Below are positions 40,998-50,134 of a stretch of DNA of 64,000 nt, piece by piece (the first letter of the stretch is position 1; the number at the start of each line of letters is the position of its first letter). Location: contig CAVRYC010000006.1 of the NCBI GenBank assembly GCA_963725245.1, positions 3,347 to 67,346 of the forward strand, read 5' to 3'. The translations under genes and the position numbers were made by a program. This DNA comes from an uncultured Acidobacteriaceae bacterium (GTDB lineage Bacteria > Acidobacteriota > Terriglobia > Terriglobales > Acidobacteriaceae). Under the pieces are notes generated by a model. The model did no database searches and was not told where the DNA came from. It saw only the letters and a list, made by a program, of their open reading frames with translations.

Positions 40998-43754
40998 ATG
41001 AGTTCGAGCGAGGCTGGTCTCGTGGGACGACCGCCGAATCGTGAAGAGAAACAGACAGCACCAATGGGCTACGGCATGGACGCCATGTTCGCTCCCAGTT
41101 CGGTGGCCGTCATCGGTGCGACCAGTCGTCCTGGCACCGTAGGCCGCTCCGTTCTGGAGAACCTGCTGTCCGGTAAATTTCAGGGAAAAGTGTATGCCGT
41201 CAACGCCAAGAATCCGGAAGTGCTGGGGCTCAAAACCTACGCGAGCATTCGCGACATCCCCGGACAGGTGGATTTGGCTATCGTTGCCACCCCGGCAGTA
41301 ACGGTCCCGCAGGTCATTGGGGAGTGTGTGGATGCGGGCACCAAGGCTGCGGCTGTGATTTCCGCGGGATTCAGGGAGCGGGGCGCGGACGGCGCCGCGC
41401 TCGAGCAGCAAGTTCAAGAACAGTTGCGGCGCGGTACCATGCGCTTGCTGGGCCCAAACTGCATGGGCATCATGAACCCGACCATCGGGTTGAATGCCAC
41501 TTTCGTAAAAGATCCGCCCAAGGCGGGCAACGTCGCGTTCCTGAGTCAAAGCGGAGCGCTTTTGGTCGCGATCCTCGACTGGAGCGGCCGCGAACAAGTT
41601 GGCTTCAGCGCCATCGTTTCCACCGGCTCGATGCTCGATGTGGGCTGGGGCGATTTGATCTACTACCTGGGCGACGATCCGCACACCAAGAGCATCCTGC
41701 TCTACATGGAATCGGTGGGGGATGCGCGGTCGTTCGTGTCGGCGGCTCGTGAAGTCGCACTCACCAAGCCGATCATCGTGATTAAAGCCGGCCGCTCGGA
41801 AGCGGCCTCGCGGGCTGCGGCCTCACATACCGGCGCGCTCACGGGCAGCGACGAAGTGCTGGAGGCAGCCTTCCGCCGCTCCGGAGTGTTGCGGGTGCAC
41901 AGCATCTCGGATCTTTTCTATATGGCGGAAGTGCTCGGCCGACAGCCTCGCCCCAAGGGTCCGCGGCTTACGATTCTGACCAATGCGGGCGGCCCGGCAG
42001 TCCTGGCCACGGACGCGCTGGTAGCCAGCGGTGGAGAACTGGCCGAGCTTTCTCCGGAGACCCTCCGGCGCCTGAATGAGTTCCTGCCTGCCCACTGGAG
42101 TCACGGCAATCCTATTGATGTTCTCGCCGATACCGATTCCGAGCGCTATGCTCGCGCCCTCGAAATTGCTTCGCAAGATCCGAACAGCGATGGACTGCTG
42201 GTCATCCTTGTCCCGCAAGCCATGGCCGACCCTTTGCTGGTTGCAGAAAGCATGAAACCTTATGCCAAAGGATATGGCAAGCCCGTGCTCGCCAGTTGGA
42301 TGGGAGGCAACAGCATTGCTGCCGGCGAAGCCGTCCTGAATTCGGCGGGCATTCCAACTTTTCCTTATCCCGACACGGCGGCGCGGGCTTTCTCGCACAT
42401 GTTGCGCTACAACTACAATCTGCGCGGACTCTACGAGACTCCCGCACTTGCTGATCAGTCGGACGTGAACAGCGCATCCCGCAATCAGGTCGGGCAAATC
42501 ATTCAGAATGCGCGCAGGAAGGGCCGCGTTCTGCTCACCGAGGTGGAATCGAAGCAGTTGTTGTCGCTTTACGGCATCCCCACGGTGGAGACGCGCGCTG
42601 CGGCCAGCGAGGACGAGGCGGTCACGCTGGCTTCCGAGCTTGGCTTTCCCGTGGTGCTGAAAGTCTTTTCCGAAACCATCACCCACAAGACGGATGTTGG
42701 CGGAGTCAAACTGAACTTGCAGGATGAAGCGGCGGTCCGCTCCGCCTATCGCGCCATCGAGTCTTCGGTTGCGGAGAAAGCCGGCCCAGGGCAATTCTTG
42801 GGCGTCGTCGTGCAGCCGATGGTGAAGCTCGATGGCTACGAATTAATCCTCGGCAGCAGCGTGGACCCACAGTTTGGGCCGGTCGTCCTCTTCGGCTCCG
42901 GCGGCCAGCTGGTCGAAGTGTATCGCGACCGCGCGCTGGCGCTTCCACCACTGAACACAACGCTGGCGCAAAGATTGATGGAGCAAACCCGTATCTTCAC
43001 CGCGCTCAAGGGCGTCCGCGGCCGCAAGCCGGTCAACATGGTGGCTCTGGAGAACCTGTTGGTCCGCTTCAGCCAGCTCGTGCTCGAACGGCGGTGGATC
43101 GCGGAAATTGACATCAATCCTCTGCTGGCTTCACCGGAGCGCATACTGGCGCTCGATGCCCGAATCGTGTTGCATGGGCCCAACGTAACCCTCGACCAGT
43201 TGCCCAAGCCCGCCATCCGTCCCTATCCCTCGCAGTATGTCTCGTCCTGGACAATGCAGGATGGAACTCAGGTTAGCATTCGTCCGATCCGCCCCGAAGA
43301 CGAACCGCTGTTCGTTAAGTTTCACGAGACGCTTTCCGATCGCAGCGTCTATTTGCGCTACTTCTCCTCCCTCAGCCTGATTCGGCGGGTGGCGCATGAA
43401 CGCCTGTTGCGCATCTGTTTCGGCGATTACGACCGCGAAATGGTGCTGGTCGCCGAGAACACCGATCCCGCTACCGGAGAGCGCCGGATCATGGGCGTCG
43501 GGCGTATGAACAAGTTACACACTAGAAATGAAGCGGAGGTCGCGGCGCTGGTTTCAGATCAGTATCAACGGCGGGGTTTGGGATATGAATTACTCCGCCG
43601 TGTCGTCCAGGTTGCCCGCGATGAAAAGATAGCTTTAGTGTCCGCGGAAATGTTGCCCGACAACGTAGCGATGCGAGCCGTCTTTAAGCGCCTGGGCTTT
43701 CAAATTCGCATGGATGAAGATCTAACTTCGCTGCGGGCGACCTTGGACCTGTAA
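40998..43754 (+). CDS. Pat/PatZ-type protein acetyltransferase (ADP-forming acetyl-CoA synthetase-like domains fused to a C-terminal GNAT)
   Basis: Intact 918-aa ORF. CoA-binding [15 protein letters not shown]; succinyl-CoA-synthetase-like GPNCMGI; ATP-grasp region; [19 protein letters not shown]. Start may be the Met at 41064. Confidence 0.8.
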
Positions 43755-43797
43755 CCGTCTTCGCAAAACACTTTTCGCAAAACAAATGGAGACATTA

Positions 43798-43884
43798 ATG
43801 GGCAAGGTGCCCTGGCACGTCACGATGTCGCTGGACGGCTTCATCGCCGGGCCCAACGATGCGATGGACTGGGTGTTGGAGGTC
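43798..43884 (+). pseudogene. 5' fragment of a second RibD_C/dihydrofolate-reductase-family gene
   Basis: RBS ggagacattaATG. MGKVPWHVTMSLDGFIAGPNDAMDWV resembles the N-terminus of the 31030-31554 protein. Similarity then stops and GC drops. Confidence 0.5.
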
Positions 43885-44009
43885 TTTGTAGTCCTTAGGT
43901 CATTGGATTTCCCGAACCGCGAAAACTACCGTTACTATAGTCAGTTGCGGCGGTAGTAAAGCGTTAAGCTTGCCCTCTCCGCAACCGTAGAGTACGCTAT
44001 AGCTTCTAT

Positions 44010-44219
44010 ATGAGCGGTGAAACTATGAGCAGCGATCTTCGGTTTGAAGCACTGAAATCGGCCCCTCTCGATAGTTGGGTGGCCCTGTCCGAGGATGAGA
44101 GCAAAATAGTCGCTATTGGAAACTCCTACTCTGAAGTTGTAAGCAAAAGTGAAAGTGCCGGAGTGTCAGACCCGGTTCTCATAAAGACACCCAAAGTTTG
44201 GCTTCCAATGTCTGTGTGA
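44010..44219 (+). CDS. small DUF5678-like protein (69 aa)
   Basis: LDSWVALSEDESKIVAIGNSYSEVVSKSESAGVSDPVLIKTPKVW matches the pattern I recall for DUF5678 (..WVA..d.kVva.g.....v......g...P.i.k.P). The stop overlaps a GTG start (GTGA). Confidence 0.5.
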   Translation: MSGETMSSDLRFEALKSAPLDSWVALSEDESKIVAIGNSYSEVVSKSESAGVSDPVLIKTPKVWLPMSV

Positions 44220-44244
44220 GTCTCAAGATTCCATATAGGAAATA

Positions 44245-45684
44245 GACGTTGCCCGGAATTCCGTTGAAAGTTAGCGACTCTCGACCGTCATAGGCTACGC
44301 AACCTTCACTGCCTCGGCAACAGCCTTCTTCGAAACCGCGTTCGCCAGCGCAGTCAAGAGCGACGGAATCTCCCGATAGCCCTGCACCTTGTGGAACTGG
44401 CGCTCGGCCAGCAGCAGGCCGGAACCGACCCAACGCTCGATGTGGTCTCCCGCACGCCATCGTTTTACGTTGCGGCAAACCGTCTCCACGATGGAGAAGG
44501 CCGACTCGATCACGTTCGTGCTCGCCAGCGTGCGACGCAACTGGGCCGGCACCCGCAGACGATGAATCGTGATCGTCTCTTCCATGCCTTCCTCCAGGCT
44601 GCGGGCGGCGCTTGGATTCAGCTCCATCAGTTCGCGATGCAGCCGTTCCAGCGCACGCTTGGCATCGGCGTATTCGGTCATGGCGTAGGCGTTCTGCAGC
44701 TTCTTCTTGACCGCCGACTTATGTTCTTCGGGTAGGTGGTCCACCACGTTGCGCCGTTTGTGCACCTGGCAACGCTGGATGAAAGCCGCCTCGCCGGCAT
44801 GACGGCGCACCGCCGCCGCCAACGCCTTGCCTCCGTCCAGCACGTACAGCCGAGGCACGCTGAAGTCCAGCCCGCGCGAGGACAGATCGCCGAGTAACTC
44901 ACTGACCACTGCGGCATTCTCGGTCGCTCCTTCCCGCAAGCCCAACACGATTTTGCGCCCGTCCGTGCTGATGCCCAAGGCAACGATCATCTGCCGATCC
45001 CGGAACGGCGTGCCGTCGATCAGCACCGCACACAGTCGCAACTCGCCCAGCGGCCGCTCCATCAACTCCTGCAACTTCTCCCGGCTGGAGGCGATGAAGT
45101 TGTCGCTCACCGCCGACTTTTCCACCCCGTAGGCTTGGTGAAAGTCTTTCACCACCGCTCCATAGTTGCGCGTCGACAGCCCGCGCATCATCTTGTCCCA
45201 TACCGCGTGTTCCATCGGTCCACTGCGCTGGAACAGTTCGTAACTGCCCAGCCGTTGCTCGCGATTGTCCTGGCTGCGCAAACGGCTTCTCCGAATCGGC
45301 ACCTTCTGCCCGTCCACCACGCAGTAACCGTTTTCTTTTCCCCAGCGATGAGCGCGACGCTCGGGGTGCTGTTGATGACGCTCTCCGGCCAGGTGCCGAA
45401 CTTCCTCCTCCATGACCAAGTTCATCAACGCCAATCCGGCCTCGCGCAGCAGGTGGCCGACTCCTTCTTGCAGAAGTCCCACGACCTCGGCCATGGGAAA
45501 GATCATCTGGATGCTGGGGTTCTCTTCGCGGGCCAACTGGCGGAACTGTTGCACCGCGCGTTGTTGGTCGATCTGGTATCGTCTCCTCATAGCGACTCTC
45601 TCCTTTTTCTTGGCAGAAAAACTACCCTCGGTCATTATGACCGGGGTTGAGAGTCGCTACTTTCTACGAACTAACGGGCATCCT
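44245..45684 (-). mobile_element. IS256-family insertion sequence (1440 bp) with ~40-bp imperfect terminal inverted repeats and a 9-bp target site duplication
   Basis: TSD TAGGAAATA at 44236-44244 and 45685-45693. Left end GACGTTGCCCGGAATTCCGTTGAAAGTTAGCGACTCTCGACC. Reverse complement of right end AGGATGCCCGTTAGTTCGTAGAAAGTAGCGACTCTCAACC. Confidence 0.9.
44295..45635 (-). CDS. IS256-family transposase
   Basis: Intact 446-aa ORF. CAVLIDGTPF, YVLDGGKALAAAV, IQRCQVHKRRNV, STNVIESAFS. Typical of the Transposase_mut family. Confidence 0.9.
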   Translation of the reverse strand: MTEGSFSAKKKERVAMRRRYQIDQQRAVQQFRQLAREENPSIQMIFPMAEVVGLLQEGVGHLLREAGLALMNLVMEEEVRHLAGERHQQHPERRAHRWGKENGYCVVDGQKVPIRRSRLRSQDNREQRLGSYELFQRSGPMEHAVWDKMMRGLSTRNYGAVVKDFHQAYGVEKSAVSDNFIASSREKLQELMERPLGELRLCAVLIDGTPFRDRQMIVALGISTDGRKIVLGLREGATENAAVVSELLGDLSSRGLDFSVPRLYVLDGGKALAAAVRRHAGEAAFIQRCQVHKRRNVVDHLPEEHKSAVKKKLQNAYAMTEYADAKRALERLHRELMELNPSAARSLEEGMEETITIHRLRVPAQLRRTLASTNVIESAFSIVETVCRNVKRWRAGDHIERWVGSGLLLAERQFHKVQGYREIPSLLTALANAVSKKAVAEAVKVA

Positions 45685-46168
45685 TAGGAAATACCCGGCC
45701 CCTAATGCTCCCAGCGGGTTCTGCTATGCCGCATCGGTGCCGGTCAATATCGCCCTTCCTGCAAAGAATGCCCCACGTTCAAAACGGTTTGACGCAATCA
45801 TAGACTCTGGAGCATCGGCGTGCCTTTTCCATGCTTCAATAGGTCGCGCTATTGGACTGGATATTGAAAAAGGGACAAAGGATCAGGCTTTGGGTATCAC
45901 TGGGGCGGAGGATATTTTTCTTCACGAGATCACGCTGTACATTCCCGGAGGCCCCATTAAGACTGTTGCTGGGTTTTCTGACAGTTTGAGCATTGCGGGA
46001 CTGCTTGGAATGGCGGGCTTCTTTGAACACTTCAAGATCCTATTCGATCCGACTGCGCTCCAAGTGGAACTCGAACGCCTCTATCACGCTTAGGATTTAA
46101 AATATGCCTAGCAGACTTTCTTGAATCACTTGCATGAAGTGCATGCTTCCGACCAGCGTTTTCACGAG

Positions 46169-46458: not shown

Positions 46459-49400
46459 ATGAAGCGTAAATTCAAGACCATGGACGGCAACGAGGCAGTG
46501 GCCTATGTCGCCTACCGCCTCAATGAGGTCATCGCCATTTATCCCATCACCCCCTCGTCGAACATGGGCGAATGGGCGGACCAATGGGCGTCGGAAGAGG
46601 TGCCCAACATCTGGGGCAGCGTGCCCCACGTGATCGAAATGCAGAGCGAAGGCGGAGCTTCCGGCGCGGTTCATGGCGCGCTCCAGACCGGGGCCCTGTC
46701 CACGACCTTCACGGCGTCGCAAGGCCTGCTGCTGATGATCCCCAACATGAACAAGATCGCCGGCGAACTTACGGCTACGGCATTCCACGTCAGCGCGCGC
46801 ACGGTGGCAACCCACGCCCTCTCGATTTTCGGCGATCACTCGGATGTGATGTTCTGCAGAACTACGGGGTTCGCGATGCTCTCGTCGAACTCGGTCCAGG
46901 AGGCAATGGACCTGGCGCTCATCGCGCATGCGGCCACTCTCGAAACCCGCATCCCTTTCCTGCATTTCTTTGACGGCTTCCGCACTTCGCATGAAGTCAA
47001 CAAGATCGAGATGCTCACCGAAGACGACATGCACGCCCTCATCAACATGGATCGCGTCGTCGAACATCGGCAGCGGGCGCTTTCTCCGGACCATCCCGTG
47101 TTGCGCGGCACCGCGCAAAATCCCGACGTCTACTTTCAGGCGCGCGAAGCCTGCAATCCTTACTACGACGCCTGTCCGGACAAGGTCCAGGCGGTGATGG
47201 ATAAGTTTTCCCAGGTGGTGGGGCGTTCCTATCACCTCTTCGATTACGTGGGCGCGCCCGATGCCGAGCGCGTGATCGTCATGATGGGCTCCGGCGCAGA
47301 GACCGCCCACGAGACGGTTGATTATCTGAACCAGCACGGCGAGAAAGTTGGCCTGCTGAAAGTCCGGCTGTACCGCCCGTTCTCCGTCAAGCGATTCCTC
47401 GAAGCTCTTCCGCCAACCGTGCGCCAGATCGCCGTTCTCGATCGCACCAAGGAAGCTGGCGCCGGGAGAGAGCCGCTCTATCTTGACGTCGTCAGCGCGA
47501 TTCACGAAGGAATCAGGCTGGGCTATGGAACGCTGAAGGTCGCGCCGGAAATCGTCGGTGGACGTTACGGTCTCTCTTCGAAAGAATTCACGCCCGCGAT
47601 GGTCAAAGCCGTTTACGACAACCTGGCGAAGCCAAGTTCAAAGATGAAAGACCACTTCACCGTCGGCATTCAAGACGACGTGAGCCATAGCAGCCTGGAT
47701 TACGATTCCGATTTTTCCGTCGAGCCCGAGAGCGTGGTGCGCGCCATGTTCTACGGCCTGGGCGCGGATGGCACGGTGGGCGCGAACAAGAACTCGATCA
47801 AGATCATCGGCGAAAACACCGACAACTACGGGCAGGGATACTTCGTCTACGACTCCAAGAAGTCGGGCGCGATGACGGTTTCGCACCTGCGTTTCGGGCC
47901 GCAGCCGATCCGCTCCAGCTACCTGATTTCGAAGGCCAACTTCGTGGCCTGCCATCAATGGATTTTCCTCGAGCGCTACGACATGCTCAGCGCCCTGGTT
48001 TCCGGTGGCGTTTTCCTGCTCAATAGCCCTTTTAATAAGGACGAAGTTTGGGACCATCTGCCGCGCGAAGTCCAGACGCAATTGATCGCGCAAGAAGGCC
48101 CGGTTTTTCATCATCGACGCCTATCAGGTGGCGAGCGATACCGGCATGGGCTCGCGCATGAATACCATTCTGCAGACTTGCTTCTTCGCCATCTCCAAGG
48201 TTCTGCCTGGCGAACAGGCCATTGAAGCCATTCGCAAGTCGATCCGCGACACCTACGGCAAGAAAGGTGACGAGGTCGTGCAGCAGAACCTGCACGCCGT
48301 GGATGAAACGCTGTCCCACCTTTTTGAAGTCAGCGTACCCGACAAGGTCACGAGCCACGCCGAAATGCCGCCGGCGTTCTCTCCGCAGGCGCCGCAGTTT
48401 GAGCGCGATGTGCTCGGCGTAATCTACGCCGGCCACGGCGACGAGATCCCCGTGAGCGCTTTCCCCGTCGATGGAACCTTCCCCACCGGCACCGCCAAAT
48501 GGGAAAAGCGCAACATCGCGCTCGAAATTCCGGCGTGGGATACGAAGATCTGTATTCAGTGCGGCAAGTGCGCCATGGTCTGCCCGCACGCCGTGATCCG
48601 CATCAAGGTCTACGACTCCAAGCAACTGGAGGGCGCGCCCGCGACCTTCAAATCTACCGAGGTGCGCGACAAGGACAAAGACTGGCAGGGCCTGAAGTAC
48701 ACCATCCAGGTTGCGCCCGAAGATTGCACCGGATGCGGCATCTGCGTCGACATCTGTCCCGCAAAGAACAAGAGCGAGACTCGCCTGAAAGCGATCAACA
48801 TGGTGCCGCAGCCGCCGCTGCGCGAGCCGGAGCGGGAGAACTGGGACTTCTTCCTCAAGATTCCAGAGCTCGATCGCCGGAAGATCAAGAGCACAAGTAT
48901 CCGCCAGCAACAGATACAGGAGCCTTTATTTGAATTTTCGGGAGCTTGTTCCGGGTGCGGCGAGACGCCCTATCTGAAGCTGCTTTCCCAACTCTTCGGA
49001 GATCGTTCCGTGATCGCCAATGCGACCGGCTGCTCTTCGATCTACGGCGGCAACCTGCCGACCACGCCTTGGGCCAAGAATCTCGACGGCCGCGGACCGG
49101 CTTGGTCGAATTCCCTGTTTGAAGACAATGCCGAGTTCGGCCTGGGATTCAGGCTCTCCATCGACAAGCAGGCCGAATTCGCCCGCGAGTTAGTTCGCCG
49201 TCAGTCTGCGTCCATCGGAGACGAACTGGTCACCGCTCTGCTGGAGAGTCCGCAAAAAGACGAGGCGGACATTTACGAGCAGCGGCAGCGCGTCGAACTG
49301 CTGAAGGAAAAGCTGAAGGGTCAGGACTCCCCGGATGCCAAGCAACTGCTGGCGCTCGCCGACATGCTGGTGAAAAAGAGCGTTTGGATCGTCGGCGGCG

Positions 49401-50063
49401 ACGGCTGGGCTTATGACATTGGCTACGGCGGCCTCGATCATGTGATCGCCAGCGGCCGCAACGTGAACCTGCTGGTGCTCGACACCGAGGTTTATTCGAA
49501 CACCGGAGGCCAAGCCTCGAAATCCACCCCCCGCGCAGCAGTGGCAAAGTTCGCGGCGGGAGGCAAGCCGGGCCTAAAGAAAGACCTCGGGCTGATGGCC
49601 ATGGCCTACGGCAATGTTTATGTGGCCAGCGTCGCCATGGGCGCCAAGGACGAGCACACGCTCAAGGCCTTCCTGGAAGCGGAAGCCTACGACGGCCCCA
49701 GCCTCATCATCGCTTACTCGCACTGCATCGCGCACGGCATCGACATGACGACGGCAATGTCGGACCAGAGAGTCGCGGTCGATTCGGGACAGTGGCTGCT
49801 CTATCGCTACCATCCGGAGCGCGCCCTCGCTGGCGAGAATCCGTTGATACTCGATTCCCGCACCCCCACGCGCAAAGTCAAAGACTATCTGCAGCAGCAG
49901 ACGCGCTTCAAGATGCTGCCAGAAGAGCAATCCTGAACACGCCAAACTTCTGTGGCAGGAGGCGCAGCAGGATGCTGAGGCGCGCTATCGCCTGTACGAG
50001 TATATGGCGCAGCGCAAACCACACAGGCTGCGGCTCTCGCGGAAGTGGTCCAGATACCAGTGA
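46459..50063 (+). CDS. nifJ: pyruvate:ferredoxin (flavodoxin) oxidoreductase, single-polypeptide NifJ/PFOR type, 2 or more apparent frameshifts (~48090, ~49920); 3' end uncertain
   Basis: RBS agaaggggatttcATG. MDGNEAVAYVAY..IYPITPSS; two ferredoxin motifs CIQCGKCAMVCP and CTGCGICVDICP; TPP region GGDGWAYDIGYGGLDH. Confidence 0.9.
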
Positions 50064-50134
50064 TTACGGGAAAATAGCGGCTCGCACCAAAGCGACTAAT
50101 CCAAAGCGACTTACATCTCGAAGAGGGAAACATC

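Follow-up and report, generated by a model that had tools for sequence, protein, structure and literature searches.

We analyzed a 64,000-nt stretch of DNA (hereafter, the window) from an uncultured Acidobacteriaceae bacterium (contig CAVRYC010000006.1, positions 3,347 to 67,346 of the forward strand), in which a 2.6-kb islet separates an ADP-forming acetyl-CoA synthetase/GNAT gene (ending at 43754) from a pyruvate:ferredoxin oxidoreductase gene (starting at about 46360). The islet contains a plus-strand open reading frame (ORF) at 44010..44219, a minus-strand ORF for a 446-aa transposase at 44295..45635, and a plus-strand ORF at 45647..46093 carrying AIIDSGASACLF. With the transposable element taken out, the two plus-strand ORFs resolve into a pair of genes, A and B. 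This pair is a widespread, horizontally mobile, self-contained two-gene operon, found in many soil and groundwater bacteria, that couples a DUF5678 protein (A) to a retropepsin-like protease (B).

The interrupted locus and its reconstruction

The features of the islet, in order of position, are listed below.

43970..43998, plus strand: promoter-like block, with a -35 element TTGCCC (43970-43975), a 17-nt spacer, and a -10 element TACGCT (43993-43998)
44010..44219, plus strand: gene A, small acidic DUF5678-family protein, 69 aa from ATG 44010 or 64 aa from ATG 44025
44216..44244, plus strand: gene B, 5' fragment (codons 1-10); its GTG start overlaps the stop of A in GTGA, and its N-terminus VSLKIPYRKY agrees with homologs
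44236..44244, no strand: left copy of the 9-bp target-site duplication TAGGAAATA, present as a single copy in the empty-site contig L085
44245..45684, minus strand: IS256-family insertion sequence (IS), 1440 bp, with the transposase (446 aa) at 44295..45635 and imperfect terminal inverted repeats of ~40 bp
45685..45693, no strand: right copy of the target-site duplication TAGGAAATA, a direct repeat of the left copy
45694..46093, plus strand: gene B, 3' fragment (codons 11-142), the retropepsin-like core with DSGA at residues 47-50, PGG at 94-96, and GLLGMAGFFEHF at 112-123

When positions 44245-45693 were deleted in silico, a 142-aa ORF running from GTG 44216 to 46093 was restored. The best of the 344 homologs of the reconstructed B, P0001, is an uninterrupted metagenomic protein of 142 aa that matches it end to end with 98% identity; nearly all of these homologs are 140-142 aa long. 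The empty site itself was recovered on an independent 883-bp contig (L085; 96% DNA identity to the window) carrying uninterrupted A and B; aligned to the window, this contig gives two blocks that share precisely the 9 bp of the duplication. A contig from DNA run X2 likewise fuses 44235 to 45685, with 9 letters ambiguous, i.e., fitting either side of the junction. The inserted element has the characteristics of the IS256 family—a Mutator-type DDE transposase on the family model (NF033543, 221 bits against a cut-off of 150; Pfam Transposase_mut PF00872, 7e-38), terminal inverted repeats, and a 9-bp target duplication where 8-9 bp is expected—and is present once in the window, as is the A/B pair. 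Together, these results show that an IS256-family element split B at codon 10 and left A intact. The cassette in the window is therefore dead, with B an IS-disrupted pseudogene and A an intact orphan partner.

The initial annotation of this DNA, which was made from the sequence alone, had placed gene A at 44010..44219, its stop/start overlap (GTGA) at 44216-44219, and an IS insertion within the second gene, and all three are present as described. The second protein, given there as ~160 aa, is 142 aa once reconstructed. As to the 69 aa assigned to A, the corresponding ORF is present, but translation probably starts at ATG 44025, giving 64 aa, because a Shine-Dalgarno-like GGTGA lies ahead of this codon at 44016-44020 and most A homologs (n = 257, mostly 63-69 aa) are 63-64 aa long.

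The two proteins and their pairing

We assessed the identity of B from its motifs, its family matches, and a structure model. D47 S48 G49 is invariant in 38/38 B homologs (the window motif being DSGA at residues 47-50), as are P94 G95 G96, G112, G115, and F119 F120, and the DSG motif is preserved even in divergent homologs from the Candidate Phyla Radiation (CPR). A GLLGM motif at residues 112-116 corresponds to the C-terminal hydrophobic-hydrophobic-Gly motif. All 38 homologs match Asp_protease_2 (PF13650) at E<0.1, the best at 2e-6, while the window B stays below the Pfam cut-off (21.4 vs. 24.3 bits) and reaches 17.1 bits on NCBIfam TIGR03698 (cut-off, 57.35) in a weak yet full-length alignment. 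Since the curated cut-offs are not reached while every homolog matches PF13650, B is, judged by sequence, a distant subfamily rather than a core member of Asp_protease_2. In the AlphaFold2 (AF2) model of B (predicted local distance difference test [pLDDT] 90.4; predicted template-modeling score [pTM] 0.83), we found a retropepsin fold including the flap hairpin, with an extra N-terminal beta-hairpin at residues 2-30. A Foldseek search of the Protein Data Bank (PDB) with this model ranked Rickettsia APRc first (5c9f; TM 0.69/0.73), followed by the XMRV, HIV-1, EIAV, and HTLV proteases; a PDB sequence search with the B profile gave nothing significant. No hydrophobic N-terminal segment (signal peptide or anchor) was seen in B, as judged by eye without a predictor. 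On the basis of the family matches, the invariant motifs, and the structure model, B is a single-domain retropepsin-like aspartic protease, predicted to be cytoplasmic, with its catalytic motifs intact in the reconstruction. By analogy with all retropepsins, it presumably acts as a homodimer.

Close to the N-terminus of B (residues 5-11; window 44228-44244 plus 45694-45697) lies a conserved (I/L)PY(K/R)K(Y/F)P motif, which contains Tyr-Pro. Tyr-Pro is the classic cleavage dipeptide of retroviral proteases and, by way of speculation, this motif could be a candidate autoprocessing site.

The window A has no Pfam match, with DUF5678 giving nothing at E<=1, and just over half of its close homologs (21/41) match DUF5678 weakly, the best at 7e-4. 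In CPR, Elusimicrobia, and Vicinamibacterales genomes, however, a profile of A picks up, at E 1e-5 to 1e-26, the proteins encoded directly 5' of the B homologs. Five of these upstream partners, from CPR and Vicinamibacterales genomes, score 25-37 bits on PF18929, above its gathering score of 23.2, and one more scores 22.8. A profile built from those partners retrieved 2893 proteins, with PF18929 on all 120 listed. Because orthologous partners in the same genomic role pass the PF18929 gathering score, A is, at the family level and by transitive homology, a divergent DUF5678 protein. The two families share a core of ~50 residues (xWVAlxxDexxvvaxGxxxxEaxxxaxxxGxxxPxlxxxP), and bona fide PF18929 members precede the same protease family in CPR. 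The acidobacterial branch, including the window A, differs in being sub-threshold or undetected on PF18929 and in having its own tail, KTPKxWLPISV. Thus, the labels that the initial annotation gave to the two proteins, DUF5678-like and aspartic protease, hold for the families, the latter also through its APRc/XMRV/HIV-like model, but not for either window protein scored on its own.

The AF2 model of A (pLDDT 82.8) has an alpha-beta-beta-alpha-beta fold followed by a C-terminal tail that is unstructured but highly conserved (KTPKxWLPISV; more generally, KTPKxW-LPxSV). The isoelectric point (pI) of the window protein is 4.5. A PDB sequence search with the A profile returned nothing significant. 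In the Foldseek ranking for A, a Pandoravirus 'DUF5678' protein took second place, though an E-value of 0.3 makes this no more than a hint.

To quantify how strictly the two genes occur together, we used two sets of loci. The B-anchored set came from a scan of 185,579 species genomes, which gave 80 loci (81 with locus L001), mostly from Terriglobia but also from Bryobacterales, Vicinamibacterales, Acetobacteraceae, Elusimicrobia, and several CPR lineages. An A homolog was found immediately 5' of B, on the same strand, in about 78 of the 81, the exceptions being a contig end and damaged loci. The A-anchored set comprised 80 metagenome loci found with an acidobacterial alignment, 10 of which end too near A to judge. 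Directly downstream of A in the remaining 70, there was an intact B in 56, a damaged B in 13, and no B in 1, i.e., B or a B remnant follows A in 69/70. The same arrangement holds for three bona fide PF18929 proteins on long CPR contigs, among ribosomal and other core genes. In each case the next gene overlaps by 4 nt and encodes a protein of 131-141 aa, for which 2/3 look-ups give a weak Asp_protease_2 match as the annotation. Moreover, the distances among A proteins and among B proteins co-vary (Mantel r=0.79, p=0.001), with equal mean divergence. The pairing of A and B is thus near-obligate in both directions and across several phyla, and the co-occurrence beyond chance on which the initial annotation had staked its two-gene module is upheld, also for bona fide PF18929 proteins.

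Stop and start overlap by 4 nt (ATGA or GTGA) in 31/66 scorable pairs, and most of the others have gaps of -1 to +9 nt (full range, -11 to +9 nt). From this spacing we infer that the overlapping stop/start would couple translation of A and B, in agreement with the coupling proposed from the window alone. We also considered a fusion of A and B by programmed -1 frameshifting, in the manner of gag-pro, and rejected it because relative frame and spacing vary among loci and because none of the best 150 of 1785 B-family representatives has an N-terminal extension able to hold an A-type domain; most of those 150 are about 60-155 aa long, with 177 and 184 aa for the longest two.

No third gene belongs to the cassette. 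No family recurs in more than 4/81 loci and flanks are unrelated, so a conserved third component was rejected. The 150 immediate flanking ORFs match 154 different Pfam families, mostly housekeeping ones (GyrA, M17 aminopeptidase, DHDPS, SOD, PBPs), and the sole toxin-antitoxin neighbor among them, a HicB-like ORF, occurs in a single genome, at two loci that are paralogous. The low-GC islet noted in the window was confirmed, with a GC content of 50.2% for the A/B pair, 58.3% for the window, and 60.8% for the IS, and it is a general trait: the pair lies below its flanks in 74/75 loci, with a mean difference of 7.5 points (Wilcoxon p=6e-14). The cassette thus looks foreign to its hosts.

The two paralogous loci are on OZ252023.1, a complete Terriglobia chromosome with two cassette copies (L073:5417-6649 and L075:5420-6647). 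They share only a 1.2-kb block, 92.6% identical, their flanks being otherwise unrelated, and the 70-aa HicB-like antitoxin ORF lies directly after B inside this block.

The cassette also appears to carry its own promoter. A block with the consensus aagtt.caTTGAC-N17/18-TAcgcT...cgTCTAA is found 35-60 nt 5' of A in 76/118 distinct upstream sequences from unrelated genomic contexts, compared with 5.6% of control windows containing TTGAC. A generic promoter scan did not call a promoter for the cassette, and the block emerged from cross-locus comparison upstream of A; we take TTGAC-N17-TACGCT as the putative promoter of the cassette. An imperfect inverted repeat (TTGACG ... CGTCTAA) brackets this block in the window (43970-44009) and in the L-series loci, and could be a putative operator for autoregulation. 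In three metatranscriptome runs, contigs extend over A and continue through an unbroken A/B junction into B. A and B are thus co-transcribed, with the reservation that DNA carry-over is possible in RNA libraries.

When the cassette decays, it is mostly B that is lost, with at least 12 independent lesions. In the A-anchored set, the 13 loci with a damaged B, together with the single one lacking it, amount to 12 independent alleles, with A intact in all. Among the lesions in B are truncations and frameshifts, a nonsense codon, one large rearrangement, and a change of the catalytic DSG to ASG. The IS256-family hit in the window is an additional B lesion. Conversely, lesions in A only number at most one in the B-anchored set, a C-terminal read-through in a long-read metagenome-assembled genome (MAG). 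Since B is only 2.1x longer than A, this asymmetry exceeds the expectation from target size. Close relatives of the window locus (94-96% identical, with the same flanking genes) have no IS, but a 480-bp insertion after B codon 72, again with A intact. Three alleles therefore exist in this lineage: intact, IS256-disrupted, and insertion-disrupted.

The 480-bp insertion (L093:5426-5905, also in L094-L098; window equivalent, ~45877/45878) is 100% identical in six contigs and contains short tandem duplications; no terminal inverted repeats were found in it and no copy of it in the window. In two loci (L166/L167; metagenome contigs Ga0302324_100000106 and Ga0302325_10000137), B has lost the catalytic aspartate (IVASG for IDSG) and is truncated after about residue 72, downstream of an intact A gene.

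Possible functions of the cassette

We then weighed what such a pair might do. A full-text literature search, covering DUF5678 and retropepsins in toxin-antitoxin or anti-phage contexts, retrieved no description of the DUF5678/retropepsin pairing, in agreement with the initial annotation. For DUF5678, no function is described in the literature searched and no structure was found in PDB searches. The cassette is a small two-gene unit resembling toxin-antitoxin modules, yet built from families not previously linked. As in type II toxin-antitoxin modules, a small acidic upstream gene overlaps a larger, co-directional downstream gene for an enzyme within an autonomous unit; this unit has its own putative promoter with an imperfect inverted repeat, mobility, low GC, and a patchy distribution; and decay strikes mainly the downstream gene, the upstream one being kept.

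We therefore tentatively suggest, with somewhat less than even confidence, that the pair may be a type II toxin-antitoxin-like cassette in which A would neutralize a potentially harmful protease B. The binding of A to B, for which the conserved and otherwise unstructured C-terminal tail of A is the probable site, would keep the protease inactive, whereas B on its own would cut proteins of the cell, to the cell's detriment. This suggestion is made because of the gene order and overlap, the charges of the two proteins, the autonomy of the cassette, its low GC, the inverted-repeat-bracketed promoter, the patchy cross-phylum spread, and the preferential loss of B. The initial annotation had likened the pair to toxin-antitoxin or small defense modules, and four of these features (autonomy, low GC, the putative promoter, and the decay of B with A kept) agree with that likeness. 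As for the charges, the median pI is 4.6 for A, an acidic protein, and 7.8 for B, which is neutral to basic, and this fits the toxin-antitoxin pattern.

Several observations weigh against such a module. Scans of Pfam, NCBIfam, and PADLOC gave no toxin-antitoxin family match for A or B. Typical type II antitoxins have a DNA-binding fold, whereas A has no recognizable DNA-binding domain: neither a Pfam scan nor a fold search found a helix-turn-helix (HTH), ribbon-helix-helix (RHH), or AbrB-type match, and Foldseek searches of PDB and BFVD with the A model gave no significant structural neighbor. To our knowledge, no known toxin is an aspartic protease. The matches of B to PADLOC are weak and partial (1.4e-3 for the window B, 2e-6 to 4e-5 for divergent homologs). 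The 150 flanking ORFs are mostly housekeeping genes and do not support a location in defense or toxin-antitoxin islands, and neither plasmid and phage collections (tblastn of B) nor PHROGs gave any match. Among close relatives, synteny is stable and sequence strongly conserved, which would fit a useful, non-selfish function too. Finally, the decay asymmetry is biased, in that one sample is A-anchored, some MAGs are indel-prone long-read assemblies, and B is a 2.1-fold larger target, and the retention of A could equally reflect a function of its own.

A competing explanation, which we consider somewhat unlikely, is that B works with A as its dedicated substrate, adaptor, or activator in an accessory regulatory unit with no toxicity. 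Two variants can be envisaged: B might process A, e.g., at the C-terminal tail KTPKxW-LPxSV, or A might recruit or activate B for a specific regulatory cleavage. Such an arrangement would be comparable to RimB acting within the RimABK complex. The obligate pairing and the co-diversification of A and B would be expected here, as would a tail of A that is conserved but unstructured, the lack of a DNA-binding fold in A, and the housekeeping neighbors, and the persistence of A after loss of B fits a role of its own for A. The characterized bacterial retropepsin-like enzymes, moreover, have specific physiological substrates (PMC11957791, PMC4140852, PMC11957051). However, a patchy cross-phylum spread, low GC, variable context, and intragenomic duplication are traits of a selfish or accessory cassette and not of an integrated regulator; B is lost in about 20% of loci with an intact A, which is unexpected were A only the substrate of B; and no genes for export, modification, or targets are linked to the pair.

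These characterized enzymes also provide the closest structural comparison for B. They comprise APRc/RC1339 of Rickettsia, which is membrane-embedded (PMC4140852; PDB 5c9f), RimB of Pseudomonas, a retropepsin-like part of the Rim complex (PMC11957791), and the retropepsin-like osmotic stress proteases of Pseudomonas aeruginosa, which are secreted (PMC11957051); a 2009 survey noted how little was known about prokaryotic single-domain clan AA peptidases (PMC2642776). With these proteins, and with the Asp_protease_2 and TIGR03698 (clan AA, AF_0612 type) families, B shares the single-domain fold, the D-S/T-G-A motif, and the C-terminal LLG. It differs from all of them in its extra N-terminal beta-hairpin (2-30), its GFFEHFxIxFD signature, and its position below every curated cut-off, and from APRc and the P. 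aeruginosa enzymes in that no signal peptide or membrane anchor was seen by eye. Furthermore, B always comes with a DUF5678 gene, a pairing reported for no characterized retropepsin-like enzyme.

Anti-phage defense by abortive infection would be a special case of the toxin-antitoxin-like model, in which A restrains B until infection removes or titrates A, whereupon B cleaves host or phage proteins; we regard this as improbable. In its favor, the B components of PADLOC PDC-M08 and PDC-M52 have a small retropepsin-like fold, as B does, and divergent B proteins match PDC-M08B (2e-6) and PDC-M52B (4e-5) weakly. Some archaeal type III CRISPR loci, those of Sulfolobales, are accompanied by small retropepsin-domain proteins (PMC3973734), and it would also fit that the cassette is mobile, low in GC, and often deprived of its effector. 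On the other hand, the PADLOC matches reflect no more than a common fold, the flanks show no enrichment of defense genes, and no copy was found in the phage and plasmid collections searched. Because the matches of B are weak and partial and no A-type protein matches any PADLOC model, we rejected membership in PDC-M08 or PDC-M52 and place the cassette outside both.

The last alternative, a fortuitous adjacency or ORFs that are not real genes, might be invoked since both window proteins are below Pfam thresholds alone, but its probability is negligible: it is refuted by the co-occurrence data, with an adjacency that is near-universal across phyla, and each protein has hundreds of homologs of conserved length, catalytic residues are invariant, structure models are confident, and RNA contigs cover the pair.

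Coming back to the toxin-antitoxin-like reading, its broadest form is that the cassette could represent a new, widespread toxin-antitoxin or abortive-infection family, abundant in soil Acidobacteriota and CPR/Patescibacteria, which would be the first with an aspartic-protease effector and in which DUF5678 would be a dedicated retropepsin inhibitor. We hold this more tentatively still, as a possibility of rather modest probability. A general precedent is yeast IA3, a 68-aa proteinaceous aspartic-protease inhibitor that is disordered until bound to proteinase A. A is likewise small and acidic and has a disordered part, which is proposed to become structured in or on its protease. The target of IA3 is, however, a pepsin-type two-domain enzyme that is not encoded in an operon with IA3, and no protein inhibitor of a retropepsin is known to us from nature. 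Were A such an inhibitor, it would have no known predecessor, and its structure would be of interest to work on protease inhibition. Should the pair prove to be a toxin-antitoxin or defense module, it would add a new effector chemistry to such systems and help to explain accessory genes in streamlined CPR genomes and, with A as the inhibitor, DUF5678 would gain its first function. Whichever explanation applies, prokaryotic retropepsin-like proteases are poorly understood, the few that have been studied being membrane-bound, secreted, or part of the Rim system, and DUF5678 has thousands of members without known function; a strict, cross-phylum cassette with a putative promoter of its own gives both families a testable functional context.

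The insertion sequence and the flanking genes

Beyond the window, the IS256-family element is multicopy in soil and peat metagenomes, where it is 5-200x deeper than the flanks, and foreign sequence abuts it exactly at 44244/44245 and 45684. In several of these metagenomes, the word depth of the IS reaches about 800, compared to about 4 for the flanks, and the element is also abundant among metatranscriptome contigs. Since it is both multicopy in metagenomes and abundant in metatranscriptome contigs, the element appears to be active and expressed in these soil and peat communities.

Just 5' of the cassette, positions 43786-43956 encode a remnant of 56 aa that is similar to the N-terminal part of a RibD_C/dihydrofolate-reductase-like protein (E=0.05, a weak match in Pfam) and is kept as a 61-aa ORF in the close relatives L093-L096. 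This remnant may mark a gene that was truncated on arrival of the cassette. On the other side, the pyruvate:ferredoxin oxidoreductase gene is split in the window, with residues 1-554 encoded at 46459-48108 and residues 549-1209 at 48092-50074 in another frame, and there is a stop codon inside it at 49934-49936. The split gene is either a pseudogene or the product of a sequencing error; the relative L093 has an undivided gene of 1209 aa, and in L094 the break lies elsewhere.

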